Sequence record: PQ850614.1
DNA length: 64,000 bases
Direction: 5' to 3' (one strand)
Source: Escherichia phage LorandFenyves_Bas91
Part shown: positions 12,854 to 63,525 of the stretch, one piece after another
Numbering within the stretch: the stretch's first letter is position 1
Layout of the letters: each line of letters starts with the position of its first letter
The notes under the pieces: generated by a model
The model's database searches: none
Told to the model about the DNA's origin: nothing
Seen by the model: the letters and a program-made list of their open reading frames with translations, nothing else
Translations under genes and position numbers: made by a program

Positions 12854-13345
12854 ATGGATAACGTCGCATTGCCACCTGTACAATTAAACTTAAGCCCAGC
12901 TGGAATGGAATTCATCATGAAGCATGAGGGTATGAGAACAAAGGCTTATAAAGATTCCGCAGGTATCTGGACTATATGTGTAGGGGCTACGCGCGATATG
13001 AATGGTTATCCGGTTAGACAAGGATTAACGTATTCTATAGAGGATTGTCTAGCTCTGCTAGATAGAGACACACAAGACTCTGTTCGTGCTACTCAGAAGA
13101 ACATAAAGGTTCCTTTACTAGTTCATGAGTTTGATGCACTCACTTCTTTCAACTTCAACGTTGGCAGTGGTGCTTTGAGCACATCTAAGTTAAGGAAAGT
13201 AATCAATGGAGATGTTAAGGGAGACGTTTATTCCGAATTTCTTCGTTGGGATAAAATAACGGTCAAGGGAGAGAAGCAGAGAAGTCAGGGTCTTCATAAT
13301 AGAAGAGTTGCAGAAGCTAATCTTTACACCGAAGGTAAATATTAA
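12854..13345 (+). CDS. phage lysozyme (GH24-like endolysin or virion lysozyme)
   Basis: HEGMRTKAYKDSAGIWTICVGAT matches the lambda/T4-type lysozyme catalytic region. Confidence 0.75.
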   Translation: MDNVALPPVQLNLSPAGMEFIMKHEGMRTKAYKDSAGIWTICVGATRDMNGYPVRQGLTYSIEDCLALLDRDTQDSVRATQKNIKVPLLVHEFDALTSFNFNVGSGALSTSKLRKVINGDVKGDVYSEFLRWDKITVKGEKQRSQGLHNRRVAEANLYTEGKY

Positions 13346-40104: not shown

Positions 40105-40160
40105 TTAGAACTCCTTAATATATCAGTGTACACTAAGGAGTATACATTATAAGTTACTGT

Positions 40161-52148: not shown

Positions 52149-54179
52149 TTAACCTCTATTCAATGAACATTTAGGGGAATTACAATAAACTTGATTCATA
52201 GAACCAAGCGTACAACTTTCAGCATCGCGCCACGGAATCTGCTTAAAACACTCTGAGCAGTATCCGAGGGTTGACCACATGGCTTTGGTGAAGTCAGTGC
52301 TTCGGTTTCCGTCGAAGCTGACAACAGTTTTGCGGAGAGCTGTTCGTGATTCAGGAAACACACCTGCTTTCTCAGCAGGTTCCTCCTTTTTTGGCTTAGT
52401 TGAGATTGCAAAAATACTGTTGCTACGTTTCTCAACATAAGCATCAACAACATCCTCCAGAGTGATGCCTGTCTGTTTCGCTGAGGAAGGTAATACAGTC
52501 ATACGACCAATCATTTCTTCAGTTACACGTAAAGCAAATTCAGGACGACGGGCGTTTGTTGTATCTGTTGCTTTAATCCATACATAACCATCTTTGATCG
52601 TAGCATTAGATACTTTCTTCTTTACTTCTACAGCGCAGACTTTACAGATATCTTCTCCACGAAGACGACTAAGCTCATCATCGAACTCATTCTCTGTTTT
52701 AACTTCACCACAGATTTCACAAACACCAATAGGAGTCTCCTCCTCTTCTTCCTCTTTAGGTTTAGTCAAACCTTCCAGACATTCAGGATGCCAGTAGCAC
52801 TGATATGCGAAGACTGCTTTAGGTGCATCCTTCCAGTCAATGTGCTTGTCACAACCACCACAATCACCATGAGAGTGTGCTTCCCAGAATTTACGAGTGA
52901 TAGTAACGCCATTCTTGTTGACGAAACTATCATTCATATCAAAAGGGATATCATCATCGAAGTCAGCAGTAGTTGACTCAGGCTCCTTTTTCTCCAGAGA
53001 CGGGTCAACAAAACGACCTGCTGTGATCACTAAACGAACCATAGCATTAACTTCGGAGATGCAGGATACTGTCCCACGGTAAACAATTTTAGGGTCTTTC
53101 AGTGCGTCCTGATAAGCCTTAATGTCTACGTTATGAACATCACCTTCGATGTATTCTTGAGATTTCTCATCGTAGATATAGCCAATCATCTTACCACGAG
53201 AAGGAACAGCACCAGCAGTCGCATAAGGAACAAACTCATGTGGTGTGATTTCCACAGTCATATCGCGGCGGATATCAATGTTTCGATCGCTTGCGATTTT
53301 GTTTTGACTTACCACTGCGTTTCTTCGACGAACGTCTGCCGCTGTCACACCCGGCTTCGTGTCGTAAGGATTGCTTGTATTGCTTTTTGAGGAACTTTGA
53401 TAGTTGCTTTGGCTGTAGTTGTTCGAGTAATAACTGCCCCAACGATTGGCTACCGTAAAAACCGGAAGCTCGTGGGCGACCTCTTCAACCAGAGTCATGC
53501 TGTTGTTTGACATATCAAAGATATATTCTGTACCAACTTTACATTCAAAATGCTCGTCAATACGGTTCTTATGGGACTTAGAACGCTTCAGAATCCACAT
53601 CAACATATCTTCTTCAGAAGCACCAAACCAATCTCTGTTACAACGTGCGAGATGGAAAGGACGCTCTTCGTTACGAATGATATGAAGGCGGTTATCAGAA
53701 GCATCATGCCAGATTAAGGTGAAAGCACCATCCAGCTTTTGAATAGTCTCTGCTGCACCAATAGTGTTAATAGAGTGGCAGATGTTCTCACTGTCTACCT
53801 CGAAGTTTTTGCTGTCAGGTAACAGATCTTGGTCCATCAAGGTTCCATTATGAACCAGAGTGATGTTACCATGTTGGAAAGGATGGGCGTTCTTGGCGTT
53901 AACTGCACCTTTCGTTGCATGACGACTGTGACCAACAATCCATGAAGGTGCTACAGTGTAAGCTGTTTCACCAGTGGTGTGCTTCTTGTACTCATCTTGT
54001 AGGATGAATGCGAAAGAAGGAAGAGCTTCTTTATAAGTGAAGACTTCCTTAGTACTTTTACGCTGACCAAAGATACCGGAGGAATGTTGTCCTCGGAATA
54101 CTCCAGCATAAAAGAGTTGGTTAAATACGTCTAAATCAGTGCTTGACAGATTACCGCCAGCTAATACGATGCCACAAAT
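52149..54179 (-). CDS. class-II (Ntn) glutamine amidotransferase domain protein with three C-terminal Cys4 zinc ribbons; apparent AUU start
   Basis: Track ORF 52149..53840 extends in frame upstream to ...CGIVLAGG...RGQHSSGI...GHSRHATKG...HPF...LVHNGTL, a PurF/GlmS-type Ntn domain. The only codon before the catalytic Cys is ATT, preceded by AAA and TAG; AGGTGG lies 8 nt upstream of ATT. C-terminal motifs CGGCDKH...CYWHPEC, CEICGE...CKVC, CSEC...CNSPKC. Confidence 0.6.
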   Translation of the reverse strand: MCGIVLAGGNLSSTDLDVFNQLFYAGVFRGQHSSGIFGQRKSTKEVFTYKEALPSFAFILQDEYKKHTTGETAYTVAPSWIVGHSRHATKGAVNAKNAHPFQHGNITLVHNGTLMDQDLLPDSKNFEVDSENICHSINTIGAAETIQKLDGAFTLIWHDASDNRLHIIRNEERPFHLARCNRDWFGASEEDMLMWILKRSKSHKNRIDEHFECKVGTEYIFDMSNNSMTLVEEVAHELPVFTVANRWGSYYSNNYSQSNYQSSSKSNTSNPYDTKPGVTAADVRRRNAVVSQNKIASDRNIDIRRDMTVEITPHEFVPYATAGAVPSRGKMIGYIYDEKSQEYIEGDVHNVDIKAYQDALKDPKIVYRGTVSCISEVNAMVRLVITAGRFVDPSLEKKEPESTTADFDDDIPFDMNDSFVNKNGVTITRKFWEAHSHGDCGGCDKHIDWKDAPKAVFAYQCYWHPECLEGLTKPKEEEEEETPIGVCEICGEVKTENEFDDELSRLRGEDICKVCAVEVKKKVSNATIKDGYVWIKATDTTNARRPEFALRVTEEMIGRMTVLPSSAKQTGITLEDVVDAYVEKRSNSIFAISTKPKKEEPAEKAGVFPESRTALRKTVVSFDGNRSTDFTKAMWSTLGYCSECFKQIPWRDAESCTLGSMNQVYCNSPKCSLNRG

Positions 54180-54182
54180 TTT

Positions 54183-54212
54183 CTAATCCACCTGAAGGGT
54201 AAACCCTTTCAT
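54183..54212 (-). other. 9-codon upstream mini-ORF in frame with the amidotransferase, ending in TAG
   Basis: ATG AAA GGG TTT ACC CTT CAG GTG GAT TAG, then AAA ATT TGT; own AAGG Shine-Dalgarno 8 nt upstream. Confidence 0.35.
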
Positions 54213-54258
54213 CTAATTAACCTTTAAATTGTGCCCCTTTATCAGAGGCACCCATTGA

Positions 54259-55362
54259 TTACAGCGCTTGCTCTAACTGATTTTCCAGATGGTCTGGAAT
54301 GTACCCTGTGATATTGCTATCACTGTGACCAGACTCACGTAGTAAGTCAAAAATAGCACGAATACGTTGTTCTGGAGCGTGTCTTACTTGAGATAGGTCT
54401 GCTGTACGAAGCATAACCAAAATCTCTTGATACAAGTTGTTAGCGTTCCCTCGAACATATCCAAGGAATCCATAGAAGTCTGACATAAGACGTAAGTCAA
54501 CAAGAACCTCTCCGTTGGAGTTGGTTCGACGTAAACGAATACGACCAGACTGTTCTACTTCATGAGAACGGCAATACAAAACATCACGGGCCATACAATA
54601 CCCTGAATGCAAATCAGATTCATCCAGATTGTAATCCAGAGGAAGGTAAGGAAGCATTGGGGCAAATCGTACAGTATTTAAGTGCTCAATAAACTGATCA
54701 TTGCTCATATCTGCGTTATCTAAAGCCAGCTTCTTCAACATCAAGAAGCGGTTAACCAGATTGAGAAGTTGACCACGTTTCCACTTAGGCTCACTGATAC
54801 GGAACTCAATTGAACCGTATTGGGCAAGTGGCAGAAGGTTCAGAGATGTATATTTATCCCATGAACGAACCAGACGGTTGAAGAATTCTTCACCATCGTA
54901 GTTAAATGCGTCAGAGGCATTCATTACCTGTGCTTGTACCACTGCAAACGCAGGGCAGAAATTGCTACGGTAACGATGGTAGCCTGAACACTTGAACAGC
55001 ATCTTTTCATAGAAGGTCCAAGCAAGGATGGTCTTCTTGAGGATATTACTATCAGCATCCCTCATATCCATATGAACGTGAGTAGAGCAACGCCAAGTCC
55101 CCTCGGCGTGCGATTCAGCTACTGCTTCACTCAGGTTGTTGATAGCGTCTAACAACTCCTGTCCGTTGTAAGGTCGTGAACATACCATTTCACAACCGTT
55201 ACGCAGGGAACCATCCTCTGTGCAATCCCACATATCTGCTTCGATATGTTCAGAACCTTCGAGTTCAAGCTCAATACCGACACCGCACTGAAGTGCAATT
55301 GAACTATGCGCCTCAGTTAAACGACCTTCTCGATATCCAAAAGTTTGCGCTACAGTTGTCAT
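54259..55362 (-). CDS. glutamine-synthetase-like amidoligase (Amidoligase_2 / GCS2-like)
   Basis: GVGIELELEGSEH, EDGSLRNGCEMV and STHVHMDM match the G.E.E...EDGS...E...HvH pattern of COOH-NH2 ligases. Confidence 0.55.
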   Translation of the reverse strand: MTTVAQTFGYREGRLTEAHSSIALQCGVGIELELEGSEHIEADMWDCTEDGSLRNGCEMVCSRPYNGQELLDAINNLSEAVAESHAEGTWRCSTHVHMDMRDADSNILKKTILAWTFYEKMLFKCSGYHRYRSNFCPAFAVVQAQVMNASDAFNYDGEEFFNRLVRSWDKYTSLNLLPLAQYGSIEFRISEPKWKRGQLLNLVNRFLMLKKLALDNADMSNDQFIEHLNTVRFAPMLPYLPLDYNLDESDLHSGYCMARDVLYCRSHEVEQSGRIRLRRTNSNGEVLVDLRLMSDFYGFLGYVRGNANNLYQEILVMLRTADLSQVRHAPEQRIRAIFDLLRESGHSDSNITGYIPDHLENQLEQAL

Positions 55363-61715: not shown

Positions 61716-62005
61716 ACATCCTCCAATTAAACATTTATATAAGACTTGCTTAGATAAAGATTCAATAAAATAGGGGGAGGGGACGAATCCTCCCATATCC
61801 TATTAATTAAGTTTGCATGTAAGATCTAACAATCGGTTGCCTTTGTAGGAATAGGTGTAAAGCCAATCCAGCACTAAACTCCCGCCCCCTTAGTGGGCTG
61901 GGTTATTAAAGGGTAACGCCCTTATGGGCTAGTTACATGAATGTTAGTTTGATAGGAGATCTGAAGTCCTATCTCAAAGGACTCTCGTAAGAATCCTTCA
62001 CGATA

Positions 62006-62137
62006 TTACTTATTCATTTTTCGTCGGCTATCTCTCCAAGCCAACCAAGTGTAGGTTTTCAACTCTTCTAAACTTTCTGGAGTGAATAGGTATTCTTTGA
62101 AGGTGTCACTAAACCACTCTAAAAATTCTTCAGTCAT
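62006..62137 (-). CDS. small hypothetical protein (43 aa)
   Basis: Not in the ORF track; weak RBS. Confidence 0.25.
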   Translation of the reverse strand: MTEEFLEWFSDTFKEYLFTPESLEELKTYTWLAWRDSRRKMNK

Positions 62138-63449: not shown

Positions 63450-63525
63450 TGGTCGGGACGGAAGGATTCGAACCCTCGTAAGGCGAGTTAGAAGCTCGCT
63501 GCCTGTTCCACTAGACTACGCCCCG
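63450..63525 (-). tRNA. tRNA-Arg (anticodon UCU), CCA encoded
   Basis: Hand-folded cloverleaf: acceptor CGGGGCG/CGTCCCG, D-arm GTCT-AGTGGAAC-AGGC, anticodon arm GCGAG-CTTCTAA-CTCGC, variable CTTAC, T-arm GAGGG-TTCGAAT-CCTTC, discriminator A, CCA. Confidence 0.8.

Follow-up and report, generated by a model that had tools for sequence, protein, structure and literature searches.

The 64,000-nucleotide stretch of Escherichia phage LorandFenyves_Bas91 analysed here (PQ850614.1, hereafter the window) comes from a phiEco32-like podovirus (Kuravirus, Gordonclarkvirinae) and is 99.7% identical to vB_EcoP_SU10 across the region under study. This region encodes a class II (N-terminal nucleophile, Ntn) glutamine amidotransferase, the orthologue of phiEco32 gp83 and SU10 gp85. 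Comparison of the gene with its relatives indicates that it is very probably translated from an AUU codon at 54179-54177, immediately before the codon for the catalytic cysteine. The coding sequences (CDS) of phiEco32 gp83 and SU10 gp85 are annotated from ATT in GenBank and RefSeq, in GenBank since 2008, and the ATT start itself is therefore already public rather than a new discovery. A literature search, which did not extend to the original phiEco32 paper, found no paper discussing it. New here are the recurrence of AUU across the enzyme family together with a specific ribosome-binding architecture, and a leader of 56 nucleotides (nt) that is frozen between genera.

On the minus strand, the TAA of an upstream amidoligase gene is followed by a G+C-rich hairpin, by AATTTAAAGGTTAATTAG, by a 9-codon mini-open reading frame (mini-ORF) ending in TAG, and then by AAA ATT TGT GGC ATC GTA TTA; translation across the junction gives MKGFTLQVD*KICGIVLAGG. 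A preliminary description of this junction had placed ATT directly before TGT, with AAA and an in-frame TAG upstream and no ATG, GTG or TTG available in frame. Reading of the minus strand bore this out, as the frame holds none of the three codons from the TAG to the Cys codon; the description was accurate but left the strand of the gene unstated. The first canonical in-frame start is TTG 53840, 113 codons 3' of the ATT, and starting there would remove Cys1 and half of the amidotransferase domain. In a scan of the whole window, the amidotransferase was the sole open frame of at least 150 codons with a 5' stretch of more than 30 codons lacking a start. A Pfam search of the protein identified the class II domain (GATase_6, E=1.1e-14, 55 bits, cutoff 27; GATase_7, 27.4 bits, cutoff 25), which occupies the first 200 of 676 residues. 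The motifs C1...R28-G-Q, GHSRHAT, VHNG and EVDSE line up with their PurF and GlmS counterparts at distances that fit Cys1 as residue 1, and the cysteine is predicted from this alignment to be the N-terminal residue of the mature enzyme. The C-terminal two thirds of the protein (52149-53500) gave no Pfam match; this part carries repeated Cys-x2-Cys ... (I/L)(D/P)W..(D/E)A motifs, such as GDCGGCDKHIDWKDA and GYCSECFKQIPWRDA, which are also present in Aeromonas phage BUCT695 and resemble zinc-ribbon-like repeats.

The start codons of orthologues in related phages, a comparison that the preliminary description had proposed, were then aligned. In 16 relatives with a canonical start (15 ATG, 1 TTG) the start codon aligns exactly with the ATT; these include Salmonella phage 7-11, Cronobacter phage A24, Proteus phage 3H10_20, Vibrio phage SJSY21, Aeromonas phage 4_4572, RIO-1, LUZ24 and Bjorn, as well as several IMG/VR and metagenome contigs. 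ATT-TGT, or in one case ATC-TGT, occurs in at least 15 other lineages of the phage amidotransferase family. The ATT-TGT junction was found in BUCT695, L052, L054-L058, L062, L063, L065, L067, L069, L071 and L074, and ATC-TGT in L061. BUCT695 has a near-identical copy of the Kuravirus leader, ATT included, and L052 reads TAG GTG ACT AAA ATT TGT. No canonical in-frame start occurs in L054-L058 back to the preceding stop, and in L061 the stretch from the preceding in-frame stop to the Cys codon is free of ATG, GTG and TTG, so that AUU or AUC is the only possible start in these lineages. Because most AUU lineages lack any in-frame upstream start, AUU is the only initiation site consistent with all of them.

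Recurrence of the non-canonical start was also seen by other routes. An unbiased protein search gave 25 usable homologues, several with predicted N-termini beginning past the Cys, and 7 of the 25 use ATT or ATC. The pattern GGAGGA-N7-ATT-TGTGG retrieved nine true amidotransferase loci from IMG/VR, and the ATG version of the pattern retrieved two. On a neighbour-joining tree, Fitch parsimony required the start to change between canonical and AUU/AUC about 7 times. At least 3 of these changes fall in the well-resolved part, where an ATG lineage is the sister group of Gordonclarkvirinae and the ATG-type phage A24 that of BUCT695. Initiation at AUU, one of three options raised in the preliminary description, is thus strongly supported by an ATT that stands at the position of the orthologues' ATG, is conserved throughout the subfamily, has no canonical start upstream of it, and recurs elsewhere behind a strong Shine-Dalgarno (SD) sequence at the same functional spacing.

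The AUU/AUC leaders share a layout in which a hairpin of 5-7 base pairs (bp) ending at -14 to -16 is followed by GGAGGA, by 7-8 nt, and by AUU-UGU. In the window the SD is GGTGGA, which is GGAGGA with a central mismatch and pairs with the anti-SD at -7.0 to -7.2 kcal/mol; in other AUU lineages GGAGGA stands equally far from the AUU. The AGGTGG (54193-54188) that had been called ideal for AUU initiation does lie 8 nt before the ATT, but it is among the two weakest SDs of the AUU lineages (-7.0 against a mean of -9.5 kcal/mol). When the comparison was limited to lineages found without an SD in the search pattern, the mean SD duplex energy was -9.5 kcal/mol for AUU/AUC leaders and -6.2 kcal/mol for canonical ones (p=0.0008). 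An automated test detected a hairpin abutting the SD in 13 of 16 AUU/AUC leaders and in none of the 16 canonical ones (Fisher p=3e-6); L056 had too little upstream sequence for the script, and its hairpin was seen in a separate fold, bringing the count to 14 of 16. These hairpins are perfect stems of 5-7 bp with energies of -2.7 to -8.4 kcal/mol, and the stems are unrelated in sequence between lineages, as would be expected of a selected structure.

The hairpin of the window, hairpin A, folds at about -6.1 kcal/mol and is kept in BUCT695, where the sole change inside it falls in the loop; it is the only predicted leader fold to survive the BUCT695 substitutions. Two further structures predicted in Kuravirus were rejected because these substitutions break them: a hairpin B (GGUUUACC/GGUGGAUU) that would sequester the SD, and a long-range helix of GGUUAAU..GAUG with CAUC..AUUAGCU. 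The overall minimum free energy of the -46..-7 region did not separate AUU from ATG leaders (p=0.19); of the two tests, the one on hairpin position alone told them apart. Tests of fold-energy significance gave z=-2.5 for the 133-nt context and z=-0.46 for the 81-nt leader alone.

Several points weigh against initiation at AUU by such a module. The hairpin and SD statistics ignore phylogenetic kinship, and 7 of the 16 AUU leaders came from a search pattern in which the SD and its spacing, though not the hairpin, were set in advance. An in-frame GTG lies three codons upstream in L052 and an in-frame ATG seven codons upstream in L071, and in principle a short propeptide is possible in both. The Kuravirus SD is weakened (GGUGGA, -7.0 kcal/mol), so that AUU initiation alone might be very inefficient and the mini-ORF could play a helping part. 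A simple arrangement of hairpin, SD and AUU does not account for the freezing of all 56 nt of the leader. Finally, SU10 gp85 was seen by mass spectrometry with 9 peptides, and the proteomics table gives it a mass of 63.8 kDa, that of the truncated TTG model, without peptide positions, and so does not fix the N-terminus (PMC4281155).

The alternative that fares best keeps AUU as the start codon and changes the supply of ribosomes, and on balance it is rather doubtful. Ribosomes would translate the mini-ORF, stop at the UAG 3 nt before AUU, stay tethered by the SD, and reinitiate at AUU; supply to the enzyme would then depend on translation of the mini-ORF. The 9-codon mini-ORF ending at the TAG, as first described, is present; the SD ascribed to it is AAAGG here, but this is missing from BUCT695, which reads UGUAAUAUUAGAUG. 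The geometry is that of classic coupling, with an SD inside the upstream ORF and a stop 3 nt from the start, and the start, frame, length and TAG of the mini-ORF are kept in BUCT695 (there MKGLTLQAD*) despite two substitutions. The two lineages with the mini-ORF are also the only AUU lineages with a degraded SD (GGUGGA, -7.0 kcal/mol, and GGCGGA, -5.8 kcal/mol, against -9.3 to -12.0 kcal/mol in the others), a coincidence that makes a compensating device plausible, and the 56-nt invariance hints at overlapping constraints.

Against this proposal, no lineage outside Gordonclarkvirinae and BUCT695 was found to carry the mini-ORF. L052, L054-L058 and L061-L074 lack it, so that at least 13 other AUU/AUC lineages have no such frame, and the upstream ORF with its ribosome-binding site is not conserved wherever the non-canonical start is. 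Within the mini-ORF AUG, the U and the G form base pairs of the conserved hairpin A, and each of the two BUCT695 substitutions alters an amino acid (F to L, V to A). In the ATG-type Cronobacter phage A24, the counterpart of the ATGAAAGG stretch is the ordinary SD region, which points to the mini-ORF AUG as a relic. A second upstream mini-ORF starts in the terminator hairpin, but one metagenome relative has ACG in place of its ATG; a relay of coupled ORFs through this second frame was rejected on that ground.

The TAG can also be viewed apart from the mini-ORF. The arrangement GGA-TTAGAAA-ATT, with the GGAGGATTAGAAAATTTGTGG spacer and its TAG, is also present in L055, which has no in-frame upstream start, and in L065, which has only an in-frame TTG four codons before the TAG. 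Because the same spacer occurs in these lineages without an ATG mini-ORF, the TAG is a feature of the spacer and not necessarily a functional terminator, and the mini-ORF owes its existence to an AUG that falls by chance in the 5' arm of hairpin A. Its absence from all AUU lineages except the Kuravirus group and BUCT695 makes it unnecessary for the start codon. Termination-reinitiation, the second option of the preliminary description, is therefore not required to explain the AUU, and the mini-ORF and TAG appear as by-products confined to the Kuravirus/BUCT695 version of the leader, in which coupling might still have been added locally as a booster, with the chances leaning against it.

The third option was that translation starts at the mini-ORF ATG and reads through the TAG, giving a 12-residue propeptide that is removed autocatalytically as in B. 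subtilis PurF. The mini-ORF is indeed in frame with the enzyme, propeptides occur in some Ntn amidotransferases (B. subtilis PurF, GltB), and TAG is rare as a stop in this phage, ending 1 of 42 long open frames in the window (TAA ends 36 and TGA 5). Set against this, the only transfer RNA (tRNA) in the window is a tRNA-Arg(TCT) at 63450-63525, which is no suppressor, and the other genes of the window are intact under the standard code, with no genome-wide reassignment of TAG and no Rfam recoding element in the leader. The propeptide-coding extension is not conserved: ATG-type orthologues start M-C, with their ATG exactly at the ATT position, and L054-L058 have no in-frame upstream start and stops at varying distances. 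The TAG-containing spacer itself occurs in L055 with no in-frame start upstream. Read-through would also be far too rare in a non-suppressor E. coli for an enzyme seen with nine peptides. As most AUU lineages have no in-frame start upstream from which to read through, this option fails as a general explanation; for the phage in the window it is effectively refuted, and its probability is very small.

It is likewise highly improbable that the N-terminal domain is untranslated, the product beginning at TTG 53840 (563 amino acids) and the amidotransferase domain being a decaying relic. Several GenBank records are annotated in this way (Paul, WFI101126, KBNP1711), and the 63.8 kDa entry in the SU10 table agrees with it (PMC4281155). 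However, the shortened annotations are explained by gene callers that disallow ATT starts, and across three genera codons 2-114 hold no stops or frameshifts and evolve under strong purifying selection, with a nonsynonymous divergence (pN) of 0.12-0.16 against a synonymous divergence (pS) of 0.60-0.77, saturated synonymous sites, and dN/dS of about 0.07-0.11 where computable. This selection, the intact catalytic motifs and the gp85 peptides together indicate that the N-terminal domain is translated. Least probable of all, to the point of being negligible, is a canonical start hidden by a sequencing or assembly error or bypassed by programmed frameshifting, for which nothing speaks beyond the oddity of the start itself: 99 independently sequenced phage records share this leader (94 at 99% identity or more over 61 nt, the ATT invariant in all 99), as do independent metagenome contigs, which excludes the base-call error that the preliminary description had asked to be checked; on inspection no +1 or -1 frame joins an upstream ORF to the Cys codon, and a gene-60-type bypass was rejected as the leader holds no matched take-off and landing codons.

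The frozen leader extends beyond what AUU initiation would seem to demand. The three genera are 71-73% identical, and in their 3-kb alignment, where 58% of columns are invariant, the 56-nt run is the longest invariant one; the next is 21 nt. It ties as the fourth-longest exact match of the three genomes in the whole window; among the runs checked, those of greater or equal length fall within an ORF or another non-coding element, and a shorter one holds a known promoter. The synonymous sites of the codons adjoining the run are saturated, with the pS given above. The amidotransferase domain of BUCT695 is 54% identical and groups with an ATG-type phage, and its leader differs at only 2 of about 50 positions. 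Since a module of hairpin, SD and AUU should tolerate compensatory change, as it does in other lineages, something else must freeze the Kuravirus leader; the candidates are a sequence-specific partner, overlapping constraints of the mini-ORF, and short-patch horizontal transfer.

In BUCT695 a decayed ORF lies between the ligase gene and the AUU leader (L050 ~2306-2490), with an HNH-like N-terminus GDCWLWTGCINSDGYP, a stop, and a helix-turn-helix-like stretch; a former homing endonuclease could have been the source of horizontal movement of the leader. An Rfam scan of both strands of the leader at a permissive threshold gave chance-level matches only, and no riboswitch. No further copy of the leader was found in the window or in E. 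coli genomes, and its only match in a genome contig was to a mis-binned Kuravirus contig. This contig, L051 (CALKAR010000070.1), is an 8-kb Kuravirus sequence with an identical leader that was binned in a 'Peptococcaceae' metagenome-assembled genome, probably a binning artefact. The phiEco32 gp36-type promoter element TAATGTATA is absent from the leader, and published promoter lists place none near the amidotransferase gene; an antisense sigma-70-like promoter on the plus strand at 54143-54170 was rejected because it is not conserved in other genera.

Other features of the inter-cistronic region were noted in passing. Changes in the stem of the G+C-rich hairpin between genera are compensatory (GGGTGCC.../GGGCGC...), and analogous hairpins occur in ATG-type relatives. 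Just 3' of this hairpin, TTTAAATGTAA(A), an AUG-UAA start-stop, is common to ATG-type relatives and BUCT695 (L006, L007, L015, L016, L050); its counterpart in Gordonclarkvirinae has become TTTAAAGGTTAA. Three metagenome contigs (L032, L033, L040) share AATGTAAATTAG...ATTATGTGGCATAGTG and have a CGIVFAGG-like frame that is stopped after 13 codons, which may be a degraded relative or another frame.

With AUU as the start codon, the initiator fMet-tRNA would read AUU despite the mismatch at the third position. Methionine is known to be removed from M-C N-termini, and because Cys is a permissive second residue, deformylase and methionine aminopeptidase would strip the Met and expose Cys1 as the nucleophile, as in the orthologues that begin MC...; the mature N-terminal peptide would then be CGIVLAGGNLSSTDLDVFNQLFYAGVFR. 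The ribosome would be recruited by the recurrent module of a hairpin abutting the SD, GGAGGA (here GGUGGA), 7-8 unstructured A/U-rich nt, and AUU-UGU, in which the hairpin might stack on the SD helix or insulate it, and the strong SD and adjacent hairpin might compensate for the weak start or condition it. Initiation at AUU is about 1-2% of that at AUG in E. coli, where infC and pcnB are the only confirmed AUU genes (bioRxiv 10.1101/063800), and AUU mRNAs are poor competitors, especially under nutrient limitation and ppGpp (PMC5499595). As AUU is weak and proof-read by initiation factor 3 (IF3), enzyme output would be kept down and would respond to the state of the translation apparatus. The preliminary description had concluded that any of its options implies translational control of the key enzyme of the cluster; an AUU start sensitive to IF3 and ppGpp makes such control plausible, although it is deduced rather than demonstrated. 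A broader suggestion, offered tentatively and with the odds against it, is that hairpin-GGAGGA-N7-AUU-UGU is a dedicated translational control module of phage Ntn-amidotransferase genes, which arose repeatedly or was exchanged horizontally, holds the 30S subunit for AUU, and tunes a low output to IF3, ppGpp and nutrients, a sequence-specific partner or mini-ORF coupling having been added in Kuravirus and BUCT695.

The phage gene can be compared with several known systems. Like E. coli infC, which encodes IF3, and pcnB, it has an AUU codon that is conserved among relatives and preceded by an SD, and low, IF3-sensitive translation would be expected. Unlike in infC and pcnB, the AUU recurs within one family, alternates with ATG among close relatives, and is accompanied by a hairpin abutting the SD. 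infC is autoregulated; as the phage product is not a translation factor, no such autoregulatory logic is apparent for it. B. subtilis PurF and GltB belong to the same superfamily and likewise need a free N-terminal Cys, but the phage enzyme needs no propeptide, its orthologues starting M-C. The scanning model of Adhin and van Duin for the MS2 coat and lysis genes is reportedly an example of termination-reinitiation coupling. The phage leader resembles coupled polycistronic mRNAs in having an SD embedded in an upstream ORF whose stop lies 3 nt from the start, and differs from them in that this ORF has 9 codons, a partly paired AUG, and a lineage-specific distribution among AUU leaders. Structured ribosome-binding sites in which a hairpin flanks the SD, as standby-site or SD-presenting hairpins, are also known. 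The phage leaders share with these a stable hairpin immediately 5' of an exposed SD, but here the hairpin appears, from the alignments, to be tied to a non-canonical start in one gene family.

At least 16 natural AUU/AUC leaders beside close ATG versions in one phage enzyme family form a comparative series. This series is suited to asking what makes a weak start usable, whether SD strength, spacing or a flanking hairpin, and it also poses the question of why a glutamine-hydrolysing enzyme should be held to a low, state-dependent level. There are consequences for annotation as well. In Paul, WFI101126, KBNP1711, EK010 and BUCT695 (L004, L005, L017, L018, L050) the amidotransferase is annotated from an internal TTG or ATG and loses its catalytic Cys, and metagenome gene calls of other AUU lineages are shortened likewise. 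Because gene callers ignore ATT starts, many deposited genomes lack the catalytic Cys, and functional predictions for the peptide-ligase/amidotransferase cluster are systematically damaged as a result. The features of the locus are listed in Table 1.

Table 1 Features at and upstream of the amidotransferase start, in window coordinates
Feature	Position	Strand	Basis or remark
Class II (Ntn) glutamine amidotransferase gene	52149..54179	-	676 codons and stop counted from ATT; translation, Pfam, GenBank/RefSeq CDS
Proposed initiation codon ATT	54179-54177	-	position of the start codon in 16 canonical-start relatives
Catalytic N-terminal Cys codon TGT	54176-54174	-	CGIV...RGQ spacing matches PurF/GlmS; Cys kept in all homologues
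SD AGGTGGA (GGTGGA variant of family consensus GGAGGA)	54187..54193	-	7-8 nt 5' of ATT
Spacer TTAGAAA holding in-frame TAG (54185-54183)	54180..54186	-	also in L055, L065
Hairpin A, UG(A)AAGGG-UUUA-CCCUUCA	54211-54193	-	3' end abuts SD; 5' arm holds UG of mini-ORF AUG
Mini-ORF ATG AAA GGG TTT ACC CTT CAG GTG GAT TAG (MKGFTLQVD*)	54212-54183	-	in frame with amidotransferase
56-nt run, 100% identical in Kuravirus, Nieuwekanaalvirus and Suseptimavirus	54172..54227	-	three-genus alignment
G+C-rich inter-cistronic hairpin, terminator-like or stability element	54251-54231	-	RNA fold; 3' of amidoligase stop
Amidoligase_2 gene, same cluster, upstream	54259..55362	-	stop TAA 54261-54259

The exact-match scan of the window returned other conserved runs. 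A 42-nt invariant run at 40109-40150 holds the reverse complement of the phiEco32 gp36-sigma promoter element TAATGTATA (PMC8948821), and the scan thus recovers known regulatory sites. The longest three-genome exact match in the window, 68 nt at 13022-13089, lies inside an ORF of 163 amino acids (12854..13345, plus strand) that is lysozyme-like by synteny with KBNP1711 and whose nucleotide conservation is unusually high for coding sequence. Kuravirus, KBNP1711 and EK010 also share an identical 64-nt run at 61949-62012, which contains inverted repeats and lies mostly in intergenic sequence, downstream of an ORF of 43 amino acids (62006..62137, minus strand); it is a possible non-coding RNA or regulatory element under conservation.

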